Source: a virus. Taken from it: a stretch of DNA of 24,737 bases. Below, piece by piece: positions 1 to 24,737 of this stretch. The notes under the pieces are model-generated. The model was given only the letters and a program-made list of their open reading frames with translations. It did not search any database and was not told the DNA's origin. Position 1 is the stretch's first letter, and each line of letters begins with the position of its first letter. The stretch is from the IMG/VR virus record IMGVR_UViG_3300026280_000003; one strand, 5' to 3'. The position numbers and the translations under genes were made by a program.

Positions 1-99
1 ATACGAGAGCCGTCGAGCAGGCTCAGAATTTGTTCCGCTCTTTGTTCGAAGAAGTAAACATTGTTCGTGCTCAAAATTTCCTTGACGAGCTCCAATGCG
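1..99. repeat. Terminal direct repeat: window bases 1-99 are identical to 24639-24737 (circular-contig overlap or terminal redundancy)
   Basis: Compared the first 99 bases with the last 99 bases by eye; exact match. The terminase reading frame is continuous across the junction. Confidence 0.9.
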
Positions 100-287
100 C
101 TCAGGCGTAATGATGGGTTGGTTTTTCGCGTCACGAGGATTTTCAATGGCTCGGTTGCGTAGCCAATCAAGATCAGCAAATATTGCGCGACGGCGTAGCT
201 TTTTCCTGAACCTGCTCCGCCGAAAATAACAAGTTCAGTACCTTCGCGGATAGCTCTTGAGAAGAATCTCACATACTTAGGAATCAT
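1..287 (-). CDS. terL: Terminase large subunit, N-terminal segment (ATPase domain); continues across the window junction into 23735-24737
   Basis: Reverse-strand translation from the ATG at 287-285: MIPKYVRFFSRAIREGTELVIFGGAGSGKSYAVAQ..., with Walker A GGAGSGKS. The start overlaps the TerS stop. Frame is continuous with ORF 23735..24733 through the 99-bp repeat; combined length about 1191 nt, about 396 aa. Confidence 0.85.
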   Translation of the reverse strand, partial: MIPKYVRFFSRAIREGTELVIFGGAGSGKSYAVAQYLLILIGYATEPLKILVTRKTNPSLRLSALELVKEILSTNNVYFFEQRAEQILSLLDGSR

Positions 288-765
288 CCAATTGCTTGTC
301 CGCGTTTCCGTCATAGTTTGTTTTCTCCTCTTCAGGAAGTTCGATTATAAGCTTGGGTAACTTGTCGAGCTCAATTGCGGTTTCTTTCCTATCTGCCCAT
401 CTGTCGGGCGCGCGGTTCTTGAGGAAGAAAATGATCGCGGTCGTGTCGGGAGGCATGTGCTTTTTCATCACTTCTTGGCGCTCGTACACGGTTTCGTCTT
501 CGCGAATCACGCGATGCACTTTGATTTCTTGGTATTCGTATCCCATCGCGCGCTTGAATAAAGCGTTTTCGACTTTGTGTATCGCTTCTTCTTTGCCTTT
601 TTTTACCGCCTCACCTAATTGAGGATATTTCTTGAGCCATTCATAGAATGTGCGTTCCGATATCCCAAGATTGTGAGCGATTTCTTCTTGAGTTAGTCCT
701 TGCGAAGCATATTCGTAAGCTTGATTGATCATTTCTTTGTTGAACCTCGGTTTTCTTCCTCGCAT
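277..765 (-). CDS. terS: Terminase small subunit (HTH-containing)
   Basis: 162 aa. N-terminal HTH-like segment (LTQEEIAHNLGISERTFYEWL) and a TerS-like motif AIIFFLKNRAPDRW; stop overlaps the TerL start; RBS GGGGGAG upstream. Confidence 0.75.
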   Translation of the reverse strand: MRGRKPRFNKEMINQAYEYASQGLTQEEIAHNLGISERTFYEWLKKYPQLGEAVKKGKEEAIHKVENALFKRAMGYEYQEIKVHRVIREDETVYERQEVMKKHMPPDTTAIIFFLKNRAPDRWADRKETAIELDKLPKLIIELPEEEKTNYDGNADKQLDDS

Positions 766-952
766 GCGCTCCCCCCGTTGCTTGGACCTCCTCGGGTTTG
801 GAAAGGTTTTAGGCTTGCTCTTCAGCGTAGTTGAAGCGATATCTGATTGTGAATCGGATTGTACGGAGCTGGTTTCAGTTCGCTAAGTTTCTTTTTCACT
901 ATTTCCATCCTTAACCCTCCTGTTTCAAGATTACCACGCCGAATAAAATTAG

Positions 953-1129
953 TCAAGCCCACCATTCGATCGTGACTGCGCCTTTGTGTATTTCCGCAAT
1001 CACGTAGTGCGTTTCATGCCCTGACGCGTCCACAACGAGCCCTTCCGCCAACGTCGTGTCTCCGTTTTCAGAAAGAATGTTTTTCACTACTAAGATTCTT
1101 CCACCGTCAAGCTCTATGATTTCTTCCAT
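953..1129 (-). CDS. Hypothetical small early protein (about 58 aa; the track ORF 953..1177 extends to a TTG)
   Basis: ATG at about 1129 preceded by AGGGAGGT; the longer track ORF begins at a TTG overlapping the upstream stop. Confidence 0.4.
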   Translation of the reverse strand: MEEIIELDGGRILVVKNILSENGDTTLAEGLVVDASGHETHYVIAEIHKGAVTIEWWA

Positions 1130-1173
1130 GCTCCTACCTCCCTTCAGAAACGGGAGAGCTCTTCGCTCTCCCG

Positions 1174-1377
1174 TCAATGCGCAAATGCTTTTCTAAGTTT
1201 TTCGACTCTTTCTGCGTCCATTAGGCAAATGCCATCTTCGACGCGAACCCACGTGAGCTTTTTCCAGCCGAAGTACGCCTTCACAAGTCGCTTCACCTCG
1301 TGCCATTCTCCGCGTGTTATCTTCTTTGTCTCGTGAAACAGTGTTTTGCTTCCATTCGCAGATACGTAGATCCTCAT
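1174..1377 (-). CDS. Hypothetical small early protein (67 aa)
   Basis: ATG start with RBS GGGAGGTGG; stop overlaps the next start. Confidence 0.45.
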   Translation of the reverse strand: MRIYVSANGSKTLFHETKKITRGEWHEVKRLVKAYFGWKKLTWVRVEDGICLMDAERVEKLRKAFAH

Positions 1378-1583
1378 TTTTCCACCTCCCTTTCAAGCTT
1401 GCGAATATCCGCTTCAGCCACAAGCGTGACGCTAACGTTTCTGATATTTCTAACCTCATAGATGCCCCCGTTGCTGGCTGTGTAGAACGGTGTCATGCTT
1501 GCCAAAGCGATTAGGTAATCGCGAGCTTCTTCGATTGTTTCAAACACAAAACATATTTTGTCGTCGCGAATGGTCTTTGTCAT
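1374..1583 (-). CDS. Hypothetical small early protein (69 aa)
   Basis: ATG start with RBS AAGGAGGAG; ATGA overlap with the downstream gene. Confidence 0.45.
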   Translation of the reverse strand: MTKTIRDDKICFVFETIEEARDYLIALASMTPFYTASNGGIYEVRNIRNVSVTLVAEADIRKLEREVEK

Positions 1584-1598
1584 TTCCTCTCCTCCTTT

Positions 1599-1907
1599 TC
1601 ATTCGTCTTCCTCTTCGTTCGCCACGCGAAGTTGGTCCACGCGGTCTAAGTATCCCCCGACAAGCTCCAAGATCCTCTGTCTCAAAACGGGTTTTCGGTT
1701 CGAAAACTTGTACAGGTGCAACAAGACTATCAACGTCTTCAGCTGTGTGCGCGGGTTCTTGTTCTGAATCCTTTTCACAAGTTGAGCTACGCGAAGATTG
1801 TCAAATTCCTCCGCATAGAGCACCTTCCCGTTTTCGTTAACGACTTCGACGGTCGCAATTATCCCGCGTGGCGTTTTTTCAATTCGCGTCGCGATCTTCA
1901 TCGTCAT
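1599..1907 (-). CDS. Hypothetical early protein (102 aa)
   Basis: ATG start with RBS GGAAAGGAGGG; acidic C-terminus. Confidence 0.45.
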   Translation of the reverse strand: MTMKIATRIEKTPRGIIATVEVVNENGKVLYAEEFDNLRVAQLVKRIQNKNPRTQLKTLIVLLHLYKFSNRKPVLRQRILELVGGYLDRVDQLRVANEEEDE

Positions 1908-1995
1908 CCCTCCTTTCCACGCGCAAAAGCGCCATTACGAACATCCCCAACAAAGCGCCTAACAGTATTAGTCCCAAACCTACGATGAAGCTCAT
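1879..1995 (-). CDS. Small hydrophobic peptide (38 aa, one predicted TM helix, acidic tail)
   Basis: Hand-translated: MSFIVGLGLILLGALLGMFVMALLRVERRDDDEDRDAN. ATGA overlap with the upstream 44-aa ORF; below the ORF-track size cut-off. Confidence 0.3.
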   Translation of the reverse strand: MSFIVGLGLILLGALLGMFVMALLRVERRDDDEDRDAN

Positions 1996-2126
1996 TCCTC
2001 CTCGCCTCCTTCCTCCTCAGCTTTCTCAAGAATGTACTGCCACAAGTCCTCATCTTCAATCTGCCAAAGCTCGCAACCGTACTCCACAAGCGCAATTCTG
2101 TTTGCTCTCTCTAACAAGCTTTTCAT
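1992..2126 (-). CDS. Small acidic protein (44 aa)
   Basis: Hand-translated: MKSLLERANRIALVEYGCELWQIEDEDLWQYILEKAEEEGGEEE. RBS GGGAGGG 7-9 nt upstream of the ATG; first ORF downstream of the iteron cluster. Confidence 0.3.
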   Translation of the reverse strand: MKSLLERANRIALVEYGCELWQIEDEDLWQYILEKAEEEGGEEE

Positions 2127-2129
2127 GCC

Positions 2130-2400
2130 TCTTCCCTCCCTTTTCTAACCCGTTTCTACTGTTTCTACTTTCCCCCTCGCCACACGCCGCCGCAATCCCT
2201 TTTCTGGAGCGCGTTTCCGATACTTATCCGAGTTTCTAACCTTTCTACTTTTTCTACTCTCTTAAGAGTGAGAAAGCTTCTAATAGCTTTCTCACTCTAT
2301 ATATTTTTTATATAATATAGCGAAAGTAGAAACGCATTCAAACCCACATGAGAAGCGGTTTTGCGTTTCTAACCCGTTTCTAACGTTTCTACTTTTACCC
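2130..2400. repeat. Putative replication origin: three clusters of three GTTTCTA(C/A) iteron-like repeats at about 10-bp spacing, flanking a palindrome and an AT-rich tract
   Basis: TTTCTA cores at about 2142, 2153, 2162; 2233, 2242, 2252; 2366, 2376, 2386, plus one inverted copy at about 2326. Lies immediately 3' of the initiator-like ATPase gene. Confidence 0.6.
2265..2320. repeat. Perfect 14-bp inverted repeat (AGAGTGAGAAAGCT / AGCTTTCTCACTCT, 6-nt spacer) followed by an AT-rich tract (ATATATTTTTTATATAATATAG)
   Basis: Read directly; the arms are exact reverse complements. The AT-rich tract is a candidate DNA-unwinding element. Confidence 0.6.
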
Positions 2401-3639
2401 ATGTATAGCCCTCCATTTGCCTCTGGAGGAGTTTTCGGCTAACCCTTGCTTTTTGAGTTCCGATAAAGCGTTCCAGACGCTTTGTTGAGACGCTCCGATG
2501 AGCTTCGCCAGGTCTGCGGGGGTCATTTCACCTTCTTCGAGGAGCAAAGAATATACAACGTCTCTAACAGTGTTTCCCGTTATGTTCGTTTTCAATTCTG
2601 TGTCCGCGCGGGAGACGAATGCGAACCCGTCTTGCCACTGCACGCGCAAGCCGATGGGATCGTGATACCCAAAGTTCGATTTTCGGTTATAGAGCGCGTA
2701 AATGAAAGTTTTTTCGTCATTGGGAGAGCGCCAGAACTTGAGCTCCCAGGTCATGCGCGCGAGGTTTTCGAAAAACACAGACCCAATTGGCATAGCTCCG
2801 TCGTCCTTCTCTTTGTGCGCTTTCGAGACATGGGAAATGATTAACACAGTTACACCCATGTCAGTTAGTTTGCGCACCTCGGCGAAGAAGCGAATCACGT
2901 TCGCCGAATCGATCAGGTCTCCTCCAGACGCCAAAGCCGCTGAGTCGAGGATAACTAATTTCACGTCGTGATGTGTGACGTTTTCAACAATGTTATATAT
3001 CTCCTCTGTCAGTGTTCTTGTGGCTGAGAGGTACAGCGGCGGGCGTTTTCCCGCGATGTCGAGCACAAGCTGGTTGAAGCGCGTATTTGTCAACGCGTAG
3101 TCGAGCTCCCAGTCCATGTAGAGGACGTTGACAGGCTCTTGACGTTGATAATTGAGATCATATCCTGACTGGAGAAGGACAGCGACATAGAGCGCAACGA
3201 TGGATTTTCCTGCACCACCTGGAGCGTAAATAAGAGCAGGGACGCGCGCAGGGAGCAAAGGATATAACAGATATTCTACGGTCGGTAGCGTCTCACAAAA
3301 TTCCAGCGGTTTAGCTTCATTAGGTGTGTGCAAGAGTGTGAAAACGTCGTTGCAGAATTTTTCGACGAGTTTGATCCAATCAACGCCCTCGAAAGGACTC
3401 CCAGCCACGACGTTTTTGATGTAGTTTGCCACGTTTTTTCGGCTTTGCGGGCTGCTCAGGCTTAGTCTTCCAGTGTAAATATGCATTCTTGTGCCATCCA
3501 CGAGGACACCTTTGATTGTTAAAAGACCCGAAGTGTGTTCGTCTTCTATGATTCGCGACAACGAAAATTCGATTGTTCCCATGGCGTAGTTTTCAAACGC
3601 ATAACACCCCAAGGGGGTCTTTTCCACGATCATATTCAT
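2395..3639 (-). CDS. Replication initiator / helicase-like RecA-fold ATPase with C-terminal winged-helix domain
   Basis: Walker A APGGAGKS and Walker B LVILDSAA; C-terminal HTH-like segment TPADLAKLIGASQQSVWNALSELKKQG. Track ORF starts at a TTG at 3660; an ATG at about 3639 overlaps the upstream stop (ATGA) and follows AAGGAGGA. Confidence 0.65.
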   Translation of the reverse strand: MNMIVEKTPLGCYAFENYAMGTIEFSLSRIIEDEHTSGLLTIKGVLVDGTRMHIYTGRLSLSSPQSRKNVANYIKNVVAGSPFEGVDWIKLVEKFCNDVFTLLHTPNEAKPLEFCETLPTVEYLLYPLLPARVPALIYAPGGAGKSIVALYVAVLLQSGYDLNYQRQEPVNVLYMDWELDYALTNTRFNQLVLDIAGKRPPLYLSATRTLTEEIYNIVENVTHHDVKLVILDSAALASGGDLIDSANVIRFFAEVRKLTDMGVTVLIISHVSKAHKEKDDGAMPIGSVFFENLARMTWELKFWRSPNDEKTFIYALYNRKSNFGYHDPIGLRVQWQDGFAFVSRADTELKTNITGNTVRDVVYSLLLEEGEMTPADLAKLIGASQQSVWNALSELKKQGLAENSSRGKWRAIHG

Positions 3640-5092: not shown

Positions 5093-5129
5093 AAATAGAA
5101 AAAGCGCTTTAACCCTCCTTTGGGAGGGT
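5093..5129 (-). terminator. Putative intrinsic terminator/attenuator overlapping the 3' end of the resolvase gene
   Basis: Minus-strand hairpin ACCCTCC-CAAA-GGAGGGT followed by the palindrome AAAGCGCTTT and a T-rich run TTTTTCTATTT. Confidence 0.45.
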
Positions 5130-5459
5130 ATTTCGTTTCAAAAGTTTCTTCAGGGTCTCTAACTCCATGCAAACAATCCAATCTTTTCTGTCTGCTCTAA
5201 CAAAGAGCAAATCCGCGCGCTCAAGGAAACGATACAGCGTTTCAAAACCGCGTGCGCGCCTCTTGACCTCTACGACCCACTGCGGATGTCCCTTTTCGAA
5301 AACGACGACATCGCCTTTTTGGAACTCGGACGCTCCCGAAAGTGGGACGCGTTTTGCGTCGAAACCGAGCTCGCGAAGGATTTCTTCTGCCTCCTTCTCG
5401 CCACGGTATCCTTTTCTCCGCGAAAGCTTTCCCACAAACAATCCCCCCTTCTCTGCCAT
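5109..5459 (-). CDS. Holliday-junction resolvase, archaeal Hjc-type PD-(D/E)xK nuclease
   Basis: Pattern GYRGEKEAEEILRELGFDAKRVPLSGASEFQKGDVVVF...VVEVK matches the Hjc arrangement (G..E...L...GF...R...SG......D....(E)xK). Likely start is the ATG at about 5459 (RBS GAAGGGG); the track ORF begins at a GTG at 5465. Confidence 0.55.
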   Translation of the reverse strand: MAEKGGLFVGKLSRRKGYRGEKEAEEILRELGFDAKRVPLSGASEFQKGDVVVFEKGHPQWVVEVKRRARGFETLYRFLERADLLFVRADRKDWIVCMELETLKKLLKRNTLPKEG

Positions 5460-5683: not shown

Positions 5684-5902
5684 ATGAAAGATGTGCGAAA
5701 AATCATTGAAGATTGGCTCGAGAACAGGATGTGGCATCTCATACCACAAGAGACACGGCAAAAAGCGGAGCAGTTGTTGCAGCAAGGGGTTGCGGGAATC
5801 GATTTAAAGGGTCTCATCATCGTGCTTCATCATTTTGTTACTGAACCGGTCGAGACTCGTTACGGAACCGACATCGTAGCGCAACGAAAGGCAGTAAAAT
5901 AA
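5684..5902 (+). CDS. Hypothetical protein (72 aa), first gene of the only plus-strand operon
   Basis: ATG preceded by GGAAAGGAGGGGTGAAGG; no recognisable motif. Confidence 0.5.
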   Translation: MKDVRKIIEDWLENRMWHLIPQETRQKAEQLLQQGVAGIDLKGLIIVLHHFVTEPVETRYGTDIVAQRKAVK

Positions 5903-5956
5903 AAGTGGAAAACAACAAATGCCGTCGGGGAACGACGGCAAAAGGGAGGGGGAAGT

Positions 5957-6310
5957 ATGGGAAAGATAACTTTAGAGTCATTGGAGGCACCCTATGTCTT
6001 AAAAGAAAGCACGTATTTCTGGCGGACGGAGCGGCATGCGGCCGCGCGCCGCAGCCGCGAGAAATACTACGTGAGCCTGGTAGAAGACTGGTTGAGGCGC
6101 CTTTGTGAACAACACGGGTTGAACCTCAGAATTGAAAAGACAGACACGAGCGTCGCGGCATACAACAAAGATGAGCAGGTATTCAAATTCACAATCAGGT
6201 TAAGTTGCCGCCACGTTTACAAGAGACAAGATGTGAAAAAGTTACTGCGGCTGGTTTCTGAAACGCAAAGGAAAGGAGGTGACGGACGTCCTCCCGCGGC
6301 AGGGGAGTAA
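5957..6310 (+). CDS. Hypothetical protein (117 aa), basic
   Basis: ATG preceded by AGGGAGGGGGAAGT; no recognisable motif. Confidence 0.5.
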   Translation: MGKITLESLEAPYVLKESTYFWRTERHAAARRSREKYYVSLVEDWLRRLCEQHGLNLRIEKTDTSVAAYNKDEQVFKFTIRLSCRHVYKRQDVKKLLRLVSETQRKGGDGRPPAAGE

Positions 6311-6339
6311 AAACGGAGAAGAGGAGGTGGAAGCCCGCG

Positions 6340-6693
6340 GTGGGAGGCGCGGGCAAGGCGATGGGAAAGGCAGAAGTACTTCAAAAGCTGCGCAAATTCT
6401 TGAGAAAGAATCTCTGGGAGATCCCCGAGGTCCAAGAAGCGGTCGCGCAGTTGGAGAGATTGGCCGCGCAGCACGATTGGTACCCCTCAGACGTGCTCAA
6501 CTTTGAAATCATGTATGAGAACAAGCCGCGAGCGCTCAGGATAATTTTCAGTGCTCCTGTTGAAACGCTCGGCGAAGACTCCGTAAAAGAGATGCACCGC
6601 TGGCAAGAAGTAATAGCGACCGCAGTCCAGTCCTTTGTTTTGAAAACCCTCGAAGCCGAAGGTCTCCCATGGGAAATTGTGAACGAGCTCTGA
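6340..6693 (+). CDS. Hypothetical protein (117 aa by the track GTG start; alternative ATG at about 6361)
   Basis: GAGGAGGTGG about 9 nt upstream of the GTG at 6340; ends at a TGA immediately before the bidirectional terminator. Confidence 0.5.
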   Translation: MGGAGKAMGKAEVLQKLRKFLRKNLWEIPEVQEAVAQLERLAAQHDWYPSDVLNFEIMYENKPRALRIIFSAPVETLGEDSVKEMHRWQEVIATAVQSFVLKTLEAEGLPWEIVNEL

Positions 6694-8320: not shown

Positions 8321-8696
8321 TCGTCTCACCTTCCTTCGTGAGTAGTAAATCAACCAACCTGCGCGCTTGTTCGTTTGCAAGGAAGCTCACAAGACCCGTG
8401 GCGATCGCATCAACAAAATGTTCGTTCTTTCGCACACTGTGCCGCAAAGACTCATGACCCGTTATGTACCCAATTGCGTGCAAGACTTCGTGAAACAATG
8501 TTTGTGCAAACTGAGTTCGTGAGAGAAGCGGAGACACGTAGATGCGAGCATCCTCGAGGTCATAAGCGACGTGAAGTCCTTGTGTGGTTTCAATTTCCAA
8601 GCCTTCCTCTTCGCACGCCTCGGAAAGTTTTTGTTCGTCGCATATAATTCTGTATGGAACGCCTAAAATCCTTACACTTATCTCAAATCCTTTCAT
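8298..8696 (-). CDS. HExxH zinc-metallopeptidase-like protein (132 aa), translationally coupled to the endolysin
   Basis: Motif TLFHEVLHAIGYITGHE (HExxH plus a downstream His/Glu); the start ATG overlaps the endolysin stop (ATGA). Confidence 0.5.
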   Translation of the reverse strand: MKGFEISVRILGVPYRIICDEQKLSEACEEEGLEIETTQGLHVAYDLEDARIYVSPLLSRTQFAQTLFHEVLHAIGYITGHESLRHSVRKNEHFVDAIATGLVSFLANEQARRLVDLLLTKEGETNENSEGD

Positions 8697-9187
8697 CGCT
8701 TACCCTCCCCTTTGAGTCGCCAAAACTCGCTCCAAAAGAGGAAATCAATCAAGTGCGCTTTTGTCTCTTGCGGTACAGCTTCATCGATTTTGCAATTCGA
8801 CGGATCTCGCATCGCCAGCCAATTCAAAACGTTCCCAATACCCCAATTGTATGCCATGACCGCGAGAATGTCGGCACGTTCGTAGTCGAAAAACATTCTG
8901 TAAAGACGTCTAAGATAGCGAATCCCAACAAAGATGTTGCGGTCTGGTCTAAACATGTCATCGTAGTCGAAGTTTGTTGAATAAATCTGGTTTATATCCT
9001 CGAGCGCCGCGCGCGAGACCTGCATAAGTCCTCTCGCATATCCCGAATCCGCGTTAGGATCCCAGGCGCTTTCGGTTTCAATCAGCGCAAAAACGTGGTG
9101 CAACTTCGGAAAGTCCGCGACCTTGTACGCCGTCACAAAGTCAACATAGTGTGCCTCAACTAAGTGTTCAAGCATTTTTCTTGTCAT
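8693..9187 (-). CDS. Endolysin, lytic transglycosylase (SLT domain)
   Basis: Family-1 lytic transglycosylase motifs: ETES (catalytic Glu), GLMQV, and AYNWG; no signal peptide or TM segment. Confidence 0.8.
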   Translation of the reverse strand: MTRKMLEHLVEAHYVDFVTAYKVADFPKLHHVFALIETESAWDPNADSGYARGLMQVSRAALEDINQIYSTNFDYDDMFRPDRNIFVGIRYLRRLYRMFFDYERADILAVMAYNWGIGNVLNWLAMRDPSNCKIDEAVPQETKAHLIDFLFWSEFWRLKGEGKR

Positions 9188-23738: not shown

Positions 23739-24737
23739 ACGATCACCCTTTCAACGTGCGGTTTCACGTTTTGGCGATTCTGGTAGACCGCGTATCTGAG
23801 CGCGTCCATAGCGTGGTCCATAAATTTGACTGGTTCATCGAGTGGGTTGCCGTTTCGGTCTTCTTTCCATTTGTAGTTGCGAATCTCTTTTAGTGTATTC
23901 ACACAATGTTCGCTTATGTAGATTGTCCTGCGTTTCAGAAAATCTATGCCCGCTTTGACATCTTTCAAAGCGGGTTGGATGTTGAAGCCCGCGCGTCTGA
24001 TTTCTTCGATTCTTGCGGGTTCCGAAGAGTCAGCGAAAATTGGCGCATTGCGCTCCCGCACGAATTGCTTCAGTAAGTCAATCAACTCTGCGTTTGTTAG
24101 CTTCGTCTTATAGAGTTCGTCGAGCACCCACACGTTTTGGTCTTTGATGCCAACCTTCAGGACCACAGTGGGGTTGTTGAAACCGAAGTCGATTCCGTAT
24201 CTGATTTCGTCAAATTCGCTCGGCGCGTCTTTCACAACACGATAGTTCGTGAAGATCAGGTTTTCGGGTGTTGCAAATCTACCTTCCGCGTAGATCTCGT
24301 AGAATGTTTTGTCTTCGTTTTTTAGTGCTTCTAACTGTCTTATGTACTCCTCATCAAGGAAGGGATTGTCCCGATACGTCGTATGCAAGATCATAGCGCT
24401 TGGGTTCTGACGCTCAAAAAAGAGCTTGTACGTCCAGTTATGCACAGAAACGGGGTTGAATGCCAAAATTATTTGATTCGGAATCAGCCAACCTTTACGG
24501 CTTCTCACTTGCGGGCGTCGTAGCCTGAGCTTTAAGATTCTATAATCTTGTTCGTCGAACTCAGTCGCTTCTTCCATCCACACAATGTTAAATTCAGCGC
24601 TTTTGATCTTCTCAGGATCGTCCATTCCTCTGAAGTAGATACGAGAGCCGTCGAGCAGGCTCAGAATTTGTTCCGCTCTTTGTTCGAAGAAGTAAACATT
24701 GTTCGTGCTCAAAATTTCCTTGACGAGCTCCAATGCG
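23735..24737 (-). CDS. terL: Terminase large subunit, C-terminal segment (Walker B and nuclease domain)
   Basis: ORF track 23735..24733; IVWMEEATEFD Walker B-like motif and a C-terminal nuclease-like region (GIDFGF...); sits directly upstream of the portal-position gene. Confidence 0.85.
   Translation of the reverse strand, partial: ALELVKEILSTNNVYFFEQRAEQILSLLDGSRIYFRGMDDPEKIKSAEFNIVWMEEATEFDEQDYRILKLRLRRPQVRSRKGWLIPNQIILAFNPVSVHNWTYKLFFERQNPSAMILHTTYRDNPFLDEEYIRQLEALKNEDKTFYEIYAEGRFATPENLIFTNYRVVKDAPSEFDEIRYGIDFGFNNPTVVLKVGIKDQNVWVLDELYKTKLTNAELIDLLKQFVRERNAPIFADSSEPARIEEIRRAGFNIQPALKDVKAGIDFLKRRTIYISEHCVNTLKEIRNYKWKEDRNGNPLDEPVKFMDHAMDALRYAVYQNRQNVKPHVERVIV
24639..24737. repeat. Second copy of the 99-bp terminal repeat (identical to 1-99)
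   Basis: Exact identity with bases 1-99. Confidence 0.9.

Follow-up and report, generated by a model that had tools for sequence, protein, structure and literature searches.

Six small open reading frames (ORFs A to F) between the probable replication origin and the small terminase subunit (TerS) gene of an uncultured hot-spring phage are, on comparative evidence, real protein-coding genes under purifying selection. On balance, the chain probably forms the far end of the replication (delayed-early) block, a set of small accessory genes that is the counterpart in layout of the lambda nin region. The phage, IMGVR_UViG_3300026280_000003, is a circular tailed phage of 24.6 kb that combines a Mu-type head module with an iteron/AAA_25 replication module. 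Positions refer to the window, the whole 24,737-nucleotide stretch of DNA that was analysed.

The six ORFs and their surroundings

The initial annotation had located the six ORFs by position and left their strand unstated; the coordinates are confirmed, and all six are encoded on the minus strand. The ORFs and the features discussed with them are as follows:

2395..3633, minus strand: Rep protein (AAA_25 ATPase with a C-terminal winged helix; Pfam AAA_25, E = 7.2e-21; TrmB/HTH_24), upstream neighbour of the chain
2127..2394, non-coding, no strand assigned: probable replication origin with iterons (repeats, palindrome, hexamer pair), candidate promoter for the chain
2126..1992, minus strand: ORF A, 44 aa, acidic, pI 4.1
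1995..1879, minus strand: ORF B, 38 aa, one membrane helix
1901..1599, minus strand: ORF C, 100 aa, basic, pI 9.6
1583..1374, minus strand: ORF D, 69 aa, acidic
1377..1174, minus strand: ORF E, 67 aa, basic, pI 9.9
1152..1173, minus strand: G+C-rich hairpin in the E/F spacer, GGGAGAGC, 5-nt loop, GCTCTCCC
1129..953, minus strand: ORF F, 58 aa, acidic, much predicted beta strand
822..908, minus strand: 28-aa ORF, seventh in the series and preceded by a ribosome-binding site like those of the six, ParB_N remnant (phrog_620, E = 0.0037)
277..765, minus strand: TerS (phrog_309, E = 5.7e-49), downstream neighbour of the chain
5459..5109: resolvase-like gene, 45% identical to the Holliday-junction resolvase of relatives
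9187..8693: lytic transglycosylase gene, ~7 kb from ORF B

The strong ribosome-binding sites of the initial annotation are borne out: GGAGG stands 6-9 nt before the ATG in all six ORFs (8 nt for ORF A, 7 nt for ORF D, and 7 nt for ORF F, counted to the ATG at 1129). This arrangement occurs at 20 of the 335 minus-strand ATGs in the window and seven of the 20 lie within 908-2126, an enrichment in the chain far above chance. A start of ORF C at the ATG at 1907 (102 aa) was rejected, as GGAGG directly abuts that ATG, and so was a 74-aa form of ORF F starting with TTG at 1177, which has no ribosome-binding site. The ORFs had been described as mostly linked by ATGA overlaps, which is true of A/B and D/E but not of the other three of the five junctions: B and C overlap by 23 nt, C and D are 15 nt apart, and E and F are separated by 44 nt that include the hairpin. 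The codons of the acidic tail of ORF A contain the GGAGG site of ORF B. Two of the ORFs had been thought too small for gene callers; all six are called in public assemblies.

The position given for the chain, between the origin and the packaging genes, is plausible on the origin side, where iterons and Rep are found, and on the packaging side is narrowed to TerS. Seven of the nine copies of TAGAAAC in the window lie within 2152-2391, right after the Rep gene and adjoining an AT-rich tract. Direct and inverted repeats are also present in the iteron region, as are a 14-bp palindrome at 2265-2298 and, on the minus strand, a sigma-70-like hexamer pair at 2341..2314. On that strand, nothing resembling a terminator was found between the chain and TerS, and an Rfam scan of 700-2500 returned no match reaching the gathering score. 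The large terminase subunit, used to scan reference genomes, revealed neither a prophage nor a host. A contig of 50.8 kb, inspected for host flanks, starts within phage tail genes and has roughly double the length of the genome; it is therefore probably a concatemer.

Selection on the six ORFs

A relative with ~80% DNA identity has six ORFs with the same order, lengths and junction types. Between the lineages, 125 of 200 nucleotide differences fall at third codon positions, which dominate in every ORF except D, where they account for half; Nei-Gojobori counting assigns 118 differences as synonymous and 82 as nonsynonymous. Between-lineage dN/dS is 0.07-0.33 across the six ORFs (A, 0.07-0.08 against the relatives L020 and L022; B, 0.20-0.33; C, 0.075-0.08; D, 0.18-0.21; F, 0.11-0.12). 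In the between-lineage comparison that covered TerS and the Mu F-like head protein as well, the six ORFs have values of 0.07-0.20, similar to these two genes. A stretch that is non-coding or regulatory, with the six ORFs open by chance, would fit the long antisense ORFs of the region and the few synonymous changes in the close population, but this is extremely improbable, and effectively refuted by the substitution pattern and dN/dS, given the excess of synonymous over nonsynonymous differences between lineages with third positions prevailing, the conserved lengths and start codons with GGAGG perfectly placed, and the homologues of A, D and E in distant relatives. Even the ORFs of only 38 aa and 44 aa in this uncultured phage are thus real genes under selection.

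Polymorphism in the 99%-identical population has a different profile. The six ORFs carry 13 nonsynonymous polymorphisms and one synonymous, versus 78 nonsynonymous and 62 synonymous in all remaining genes (Fisher p = 0.008). This nonsynonymous excess could be a hint of recent diversifying pressure.

A composite chain

Relatives whose Rep is only 34-55% identical retain homologues of A (its N-terminal domain), D and E, together with a membrane peptide in the slot of B, in the same order. The gene order in L036, L037, L038, L039 and L043 is Rep, an iteron-like stretch (in L036 and L043 deduced from a repeat-translating ORF), an A-like gene (in L043, the A-like C-domain only), the membrane peptide, a resolvase, D, E and a sigma-70 region-4 gene (partial on the L039 contig), and most junctions of the chain are 4-nt overlaps. 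Beyond the sigma-70 region-4 gene, where the contigs reach, follow an HNH endonuclease (L037), unassigned genes (L043) and the terminase (L036-L038), which is of the Terminase_6 type in the relatives and of the Terminase_3 type in this phage. The position of ORF C is occupied in the relatives by a Holliday-junction resolvase and that of ORF F by a sigma-70 region-4 regulator. The resolvase has apparently moved to 5459..5109 in the window, and no sigma-70 region-4 homologue was found anywhere in the window or its close relatives. Judged from this synteny, the chain is composite, with the A-B and D-E modules kept across the phage family and C and F as lineage additions. The "chain of six" accordingly splits into units that may serve as targets for functional work.

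The conserved core of ORF A reads EYG(C/V)ELWQIEDEDLWQYILEKAE. Over its N-terminal 26-37 aa, ORF A shares 61-70% identity with the beginning of proteins of 86-89 aa in L036 and L039, which carry an additional C-terminal domain; the conserved part of A is a 40-aa domain. In ORF B, residues 3-24 are uncharged and hydrophobic, followed by RVERRDDDEDRDAN; its single hydrophobic helix has a GxxxG motif, and behind it comes an acidic tail. The corresponding slot in relatives encodes a 54-76-aa peptide in which G13, G17, D31 and E33 are invariant in the alignment. BLAST alone detects no similarity between this peptide and ORF B, and the link to the relatives is one of position and motif only. A holin or lysis peptide was considered for ORF B and rejected: the one match is a weak one of the hydrophobic N-terminus (phrog_14614, E = 0.0019), and the gene is outside the lysis cassette.

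ORF D has homologues in L036, L039 and L043 that are 52-67% identical and is always directly upstream of ORF E, itself a member of a conserved family. The alignments for D and E comprise 5-7 sequences at 41-84% identity. A type II toxin-antitoxin assignment for D-E was discarded after Pfam, NCBIfam and PDB-profile searches, homologues included, gave no match.

ORF C, whose predicted secondary structure is three beta strands and then three helices, has no counterpart in L036, L039 and L043. Searched exhaustively with HMMER, 1.84 billion representative proteins yielded only its own cluster and two spurious matches, the long tandem-repeat proteins P0032 and P0033. Its AlphaFold2 model has a pLDDT of 62.7 and no fold match (Foldseek E >= 0.1), and the Foldseek matches were disregarded because of the low model confidence. 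ORF F likewise has no homologue in L036, L039 and L043, and scans match near relatives only. By these comparisons, C and F are lineage-specific; profile comparison shows neither to be related to the sigma-70 region-4 protein.

The hairpin between E and F, with a folding energy of -22.4 kcal/mol (z = -3.5), is where homology with the more distant relatives stops. Within this spacer the ~80%-identity lineage differs from the window in the loop alone, the stem and all other positions being the same; the loop is inverted in three 99%-identical loci (L008, L009 and L011). On the other side of F, the 28-aa ORF keeps ~18 N-terminal codons and not a complete ParB_N domain. L020 and L022 possess a full ParB_N gene with the same initial residues (170 aa in L022; Pfam ParB_N, E = 2.7e-10), and homology with L022 is lost at ~856 of the window and comes back at ~738. 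The 28-aa ORF, to judge from this alignment, marks a deletion scar. In relatives a defence-related cassette (DpdA-like, YhhQ, ParB_N) lies downstream of F, and it is deleted in the window. This suggests that the defence-related cargo of this phage group sits in a variable slot beside TerS, not in the chain.

The absence of a recognisable motif, already remarked on in the initial annotation, is upheld by Pfam, PHROGs and NCBIfam, which give only chance-level matches for all six ORFs. PDB sequence and profile searches with C, D and E found nothing, and the structural models and structural search that the annotation had proposed yield no functional lead. Tblastn of GenBank phages returned no match for A, D, E or F, nor for Rep; a single short DNA match was found among these phages. 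Four small gene families without known relatives are thereby added.

Probable role of the chain

Synteny makes it reasonable to describe the block as early. The temperate relative L036 has genes for a CI-type repressor and a serine recombinase, as well as cro, upstream of the chain, which points to a lambda-like early operon; its homologous block runs codirectionally after cro and the replication genes, ends with the sigma-70 region-4 gene and precedes the packaging genes. [quoted passage not shown] Like nin, the chain is a codirectional run of small ORFs whose stop and start codons overlap or abut, and it is placed after replication genes and ahead of a late regulator or late genes, all oriented alike. 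The Rap/NinG protein of nin has a functional analogue in the Holliday-junction resolvase of the relatives, whose chain also ends in a late-type regulator. Unlike the nin region, however, the chain in the window has no recognisable late regulator, its resolvase is elsewhere, and none of the six ORFs has homology in Pfam or PHROGs to Nin proteins (NinB, NinG/Rap, NinH and others).

Comparable blocks occur in other phages. Many small early ORFs precede the late-gene switch in the semi-essential early region of phage Mu, and siphophages of Gram-positive bacteria have blocks of small genes ahead of the one for the small terminase. This phage resembles Mu in the type of its head genes and in having a GemA-like early gene but lacks a transposase, has a plasmid-like Rep with iterons, and the GemA-like domain is the sole Mu early protein detected.

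As the far end of the replication block, the chain would be transcribed by read-through from the Rep operon or from the promoter-like site in the iteron region. Each cistron would be translated from its own GGAGG site, with A/B and D/E further coupled by their ATGA overlaps. Module A-B would supply one acidic helical peptide and one GxxxG peptide that spans the membrane once; of the two ~68-aa proteins of D-E, the first is acidic and the second basic. The products may, very tentatively, be small non-enzymatic binding or regulatory proteins that act in phage DNA metabolism or in the switch to late expression. The chain is otherwise the usual unexplored content of phage early regions, and in that respect an ordinary finding.

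Small proteins in this position had been taken to be usually host-takeover or anti-defence factors. The data do not support that expectation: the order of A, D, E and the B slot is conserved, dN/dS is like that of TerS, the slots of C and F hold DNA-metabolism and regulatory genes in relatives, and the recognisable defence cassette is deleted here. That one or more of the ORFs encode counter-defence or host-takeover proteins is accordingly unlikely, even if it fares better than the other alternatives. Under this reading, the acidic A could block restriction enzymes by mimicking DNA, B could exclude other phages or perturb the host envelope, and C or F could be lineage-specific inhibitors. All six ORFs are small and without a family match, A is strongly acidic, C and F are confined to the lineage, and polymorphism in the population is almost entirely nonsynonymous; the cassette adjoining F in relatives indicates that the neighbourhood accepts defence-related cargo. 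Clusters of anti-CRISPR and anti-restriction genes typically vary even among close relatives, and a gene for a helix-turn-helix regulator often accompanies them. The chain shares with them its dense packing of very small genes without family matches, but appears to differ in the conserved order of A, D, E and the B slot (retained at the Rep identities given above), in purifying selection between lineages and in the lack of an adjacent regulator: apart from the TerS and Rep domains, no helix-turn-helix (Aca-like) gene is found in or next to it. Moreover, Pfam, PHROGs and NCBIfam reveal no similarity to anti-restriction or anti-CRISPR families, and the conserved domain of A is fused to a second domain in relatives. 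The products are probably not fast-evolving counter-defence factors.

A further possibility, rather less probable again, is that D and E are partners in controlling late transcription, for example by modulating the sigma-70 region-4-type regulator. Both proteins are conserved, with opposite charge, and their genes are joined to the sigma-70 region-4 gene by 4-nt overlaps in L036, L039 and L043. The window and its close relatives, however, keep D and E without this gene; therefore D and E would work without the regulator. Neither a DNA-binding nor an anti-sigma motif was detected.

The lack of a sigma-70 region-4 regulator in the window and of a terminator before TerS means that the chain could head the late operon here. 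We consider it improbable that the chain, or at least F past the hairpin, is the start of a late operon encoding packaging or head-assembly accessory proteins. The promoter-like site at 2341..2314 is compatible with such an operon, and F lies on the packaging side of the homology break, after the strictly conserved hairpin. Against this, A-E travel with the replication module in relatives despite the difference in terminase type, and none of the six ORFs matches a structural or packaging family in Pfam or PHROGs, the type of homology that the initial annotation had named as contrary to its own proposal.

Equally improbable is that the conserved, coupled pairs A-B and D-E are new two-protein modules, undescribed in any phage, that might act early on the host's envelope, nucleic acids or defences. 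If that were true, the nonsynonymous polymorphism excess would reflect an ongoing arms race.

Coding status of the six small ORFs

The first and last 99 nt of the window (1-99 and 24639-24737) are identical, which gives a genome of 24,638 bp that is either circular or was assembled as a circle; its large terminase subunit (TerL, 405 aa) spans the end junction. The ENA metagenome contig ERZ27296002:k141_273257 is identical to the window, and a 50.8-kb JGI contig carrying the same genes is probably a concatemer because it starts within the tail-gene block and has roughly double the length of the genome. All window genes but three lie on the minus strand.

Gene order of the window in the sense direction, with the six ORFs (A-F) and their junctions
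5459..5109, minus strand: PDDEXK/Hjc-type resolvase, first gene of the early block
next, minus strand: 66-aa gene
next, minus strand: GemA-like gene, 243 aa
between the GemA-like gene and Rep, minus strand: 83-aa gene
3633..2395, minus strand: Rep, AAA_25 ATPase with C-terminal winged helix
2394-2127: non-coding region between Rep and A, 268 nt
2126..1992, minus strand: A, 44 aa, pI 4.1; ATGA overlap with B
1995..1879, minus strand: B, 38 aa, residues 3-24 uncharged with GxxxG, then an acidic tail; 23-nt overlap with C
1901..1599, minus strand: C, 100 aa; 15-nt spacer before D
1583..1374, minus strand: D, 69 aa; ATGA overlap with E
1377..1174, minus strand: E, 67 aa; 44-nt spacer (1130-1173) containing a hairpin before F
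1129..953, minus strand: F, 58 aa
908..822, minus strand: 28-aa ORF
765..277, minus strand: small terminase subunit (TerS)
after TerS: TerL (Terminase_3)
after TerL: Mu-type portal, Mu F-like protein, protease and capsid
downstream of the capsid: tail genes and lytic transglycosylase

A check of coordinates, lengths and GGAGG sites bears out the six ORFs of the initial annotation, with corrections. The strong ribosome-binding sites are there: GGAGG lies 6-9 nt before the ATG in every case, a spacing found for 20 of 335 ATGs on the window's minus strand, seven of these 20 falling in 908-2126. The description of the junctions as mostly ATGA was overstated, as this overlap occurs at two of the five (A/B and D/E), and no ORF is under gene-caller limits, as had been claimed for two, since all six were called in public collections. 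The acidic-tail codons of A (EEEGGEEE; GAGGAGGAAGGAGGCGAGGAGGA; 1996-2020, minus strand) hold two GGAGG motifs that constitute the ribosome-binding site of B, so protein tail and translation signal are under mutual constraint.

All six ORFs are retained in 13 of 13 other metagenomic loci that are about 99% identical over the region. Within this population the segregating sites of A-F are 13 nonsynonymous and 1 synonymous, which are small numbers, against 78 and 62 for the remaining genes (Fisher p = 0.008); these data are odd, and nearly uninformative for testing coding status. The decisive test comes from the lineage of L020, L022 and L024, whose DNA in this region is about 80% identical to the window as measured on L022; the name of L020 (GBSSSed77C) probably points to sediment of Great Boiling Spring at 77 C. 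This lineage keeps the six ORFs in the same order, with the same junction types and near-identical lengths, C being 4 aa longer. Third codon positions account for 125 of the 200 nucleotide differences between the window and L020, and Nei-Gojobori counting gives 118 synonymous and 82 nonsynonymous differences. The dN/dS values against L020 are 0.08 (A), 0.33 (B), 0.075 (C), 0.21 (D), 0.12 (E) and 0.11 (F). Against L022 the six ORFs range from 0.07 to 0.20, compared with 0.05 for TerL, the portal protein and Rep and 0.07-0.10 for TerS, the Mu F-like protein and the protease. On this conservation and dN/dS, all six ORFs, including those of 38 and 44 aa, are judged protein-coding under purifying selection; sequence comparison thus establishes them as coding, conserved and syntenic.

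As the initial annotation had it, none of the six contains a recognised motif: Pfam, PHROGs and NCBIfam give no match. PDB sequence and profile searches return nothing for C, D and E, and GenBank phages, searched in translation, yield no match to A, D, E, F or Rep. In an exhaustive HMMER search of 1.84 billion representative proteins, C matches only its own cluster and two repeat proteins, rejected as spurious. Matches of E are limited to its own cluster and one other at 84% identity, while the D profile extends further, to homologues at 52-67% identity. The representative of the E cluster (P0021) is named 'metallophosphoesterase superfamily enzyme' in one source, probably an annotation artefact, as nothing in the 67-aa protein supports the name. 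The proposed structure prediction and structural search yielded models for C and E, with no function readable from the folds. The low-confidence model of C (pLDDT 62.7) has three strands then three helices, and Foldseek gives no significant match to it; one model of E reaches pLDDT 80.3 with the order beta-beta-alpha-beta-beta-alpha, the other four 50-68.

A composite, nin-like chain

The contigs carrying the D homologues at 52-67% identity (L036-L043) have Rep proteins 34-55% identical to that of the window. Their combined gene order is Rep, repeats, an A-like protein, a membrane peptide, a resolvase, D, E and a sigma-70 region-4 protein, with mostly 4-nt overlaps at the junctions. In L036 and L043 the called ORF after Rep translates as repeats (TKQGLNSLN...), which we read as iterons. 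The A-like protein (86-89 aa in L036-L038 and L039) is 61-70% identical to A over its first 26-37 aa; L043 has its C-terminal domain only, as a 58-aa protein. In the B slot is a membrane peptide of 54-76 aa; the GxxxG motif, which is invariant, and an acidic D-x-E segment are common to it and B. Where the window has C, the relatives have an Hjc/PDDEXK resolvase 45% identical to window gene 5459..5109 (RusA-like in PHROGs); in the window phage the resolvase has thus been relocated.

The sigma-70 region-4 protein follows E and has 152-164 aa where complete (30 bits in L036, Pfam cut-off 24.1); nothing in the whole window corresponds to it. When profiles are compared, neither C nor F is related to this regulator, and neither ORF has a counterpart in the distant relatives (L036, L039, L043). 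In L036-L038 a gap, filled by an HNH endonuclease in L037, separates the sigma-like gene from a terminase of another type, Terminase_6; L043 has other, unassigned genes there, and the L039 contig stops inside the sigma-like gene. With the resolvase moved and C and F absent from the relatives' gene order, the chain is composite: A-B and D-E travel with the replication module, and C and F are lineage-specific.

L036 is clearly temperate, as it encodes a serine recombinase, a CI-type repressor with an S24 peptidase domain and a cro-like gene (1019-3521). The equivalent place in the window holds three plus-strand genes (72, 117 and 117 aa; 5684-6693) without family matches, and no integrase, repressor or cro is recognisable in the window.

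The chain resembles the lambda nin region, whose layout is described in PMC10695390 (with Kroger & Hobom 1982 among its citations), in its own layout and in that the relatives' chain has a Holliday-junction resolvase and stops at a late-type regulator. On these grounds the six ORFs would form a nin-like delayed-early accessory block; we infer their expression timing, promoter and roles. The chain would thus be an instance of a well-known type of phage genome region, to which it adds several small gene families without known relatives.

The anti-defence question and a lost cassette

The initial annotation is right that these are genuine small genes, but its functional reading is borne out only in part. 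The anti-defence role that it proposed may still apply, most of all to acidic A and to C and F with their restriction to this lineage; apart from small size and the odd within-population polymorphism, nothing speaks positively for it. That 13:1 skew contrasts with the between-lineage dN/dS of 0.07-0.2, and this constraint, together with the conserved synteny, opposes a fast arms race.

In relatives, a defence-related element lies beside the chain. Between F and TerS, L020, L022 and L024 carry a cassette of about 2 kb (L022 2061-4021; L020 1303-2116; L024 1326-3286).

Proteins of the cassette
170 aa: ParB_N protein with zinc ribbon (Pfam E = 2.7e-10; phrog_620 E = 8.8e-49)
268 aa: DpdA/TGT-like protein (phrog_887 'queuine tRNA-ribosyltransferase', E = 3.5e-36)
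214 aa: YhhQ/Vut_1 (Pfam E = 1.6e-54)

DpdA-dependent 7-deazaguanine modification shields phage DNA against restriction, and YhhQ, a preQ0 transporter, is itself phage-encoded in some cases (PMC6884629). By its predicted proteins, the cassette is of the module type used for 7-deazaguanine DNA modification. Homology between the window and L022 is interrupted from about 856 to about 738, and all that the window keeps of the ParB_N gene is its first ~18 codons, in the 28-aa ORF (908..822, minus strand), which has its own GGAGG site. The window has thus lost the cassette, the ParB_N stub being the deletion scar. The position of the cassette places a variable defence-related slot next to TerS, outside the chain. 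Just upstream of the TerS start, the G-run at 776-781 is one base shorter in the window than in 12 of 12 aligned relatives.

Probable origin region and E-F hairpin

The non-coding region 2127-2394 holds seven of the window's nine TAGAAAC copies, direct and inverted repeats, and an AT-rich tract beside a 14-bp perfect palindrome (2265-2298). With these elements next to Rep, it fits an iteron-type origin adjoining its own Rep gene. From the equivalent repeats of L036 the gene caller derived a 98-aa 'protein' that is probably spurious. On the minus strand, a sigma-70-like pair of hexamers at 2341..2314 faces the chain as a candidate promoter; on the plus strand, the palindrome and a T-run score as a terminator. 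The A-run at 2308-2313 in the AT-rich tract is also one base shorter than in 12 of 12 aligned relatives; either assembly errors in homopolymers or true differences in length could explain this deficit and that of the G-run.

The hairpin in the E-F spacer (1152-1173) has an 8-bp G+C-rich stem and a 5-nt loop and is the point where homology to the distant relatives stops. Outside the loop, the spacer matches that of the 80%-identity lineage at every position, although the coding DNA on either side is about 20% different. The loop is exactly inverted (GAAGA versus TCTTC) in L008, L009 and L011, three of the 99%-identical loci.
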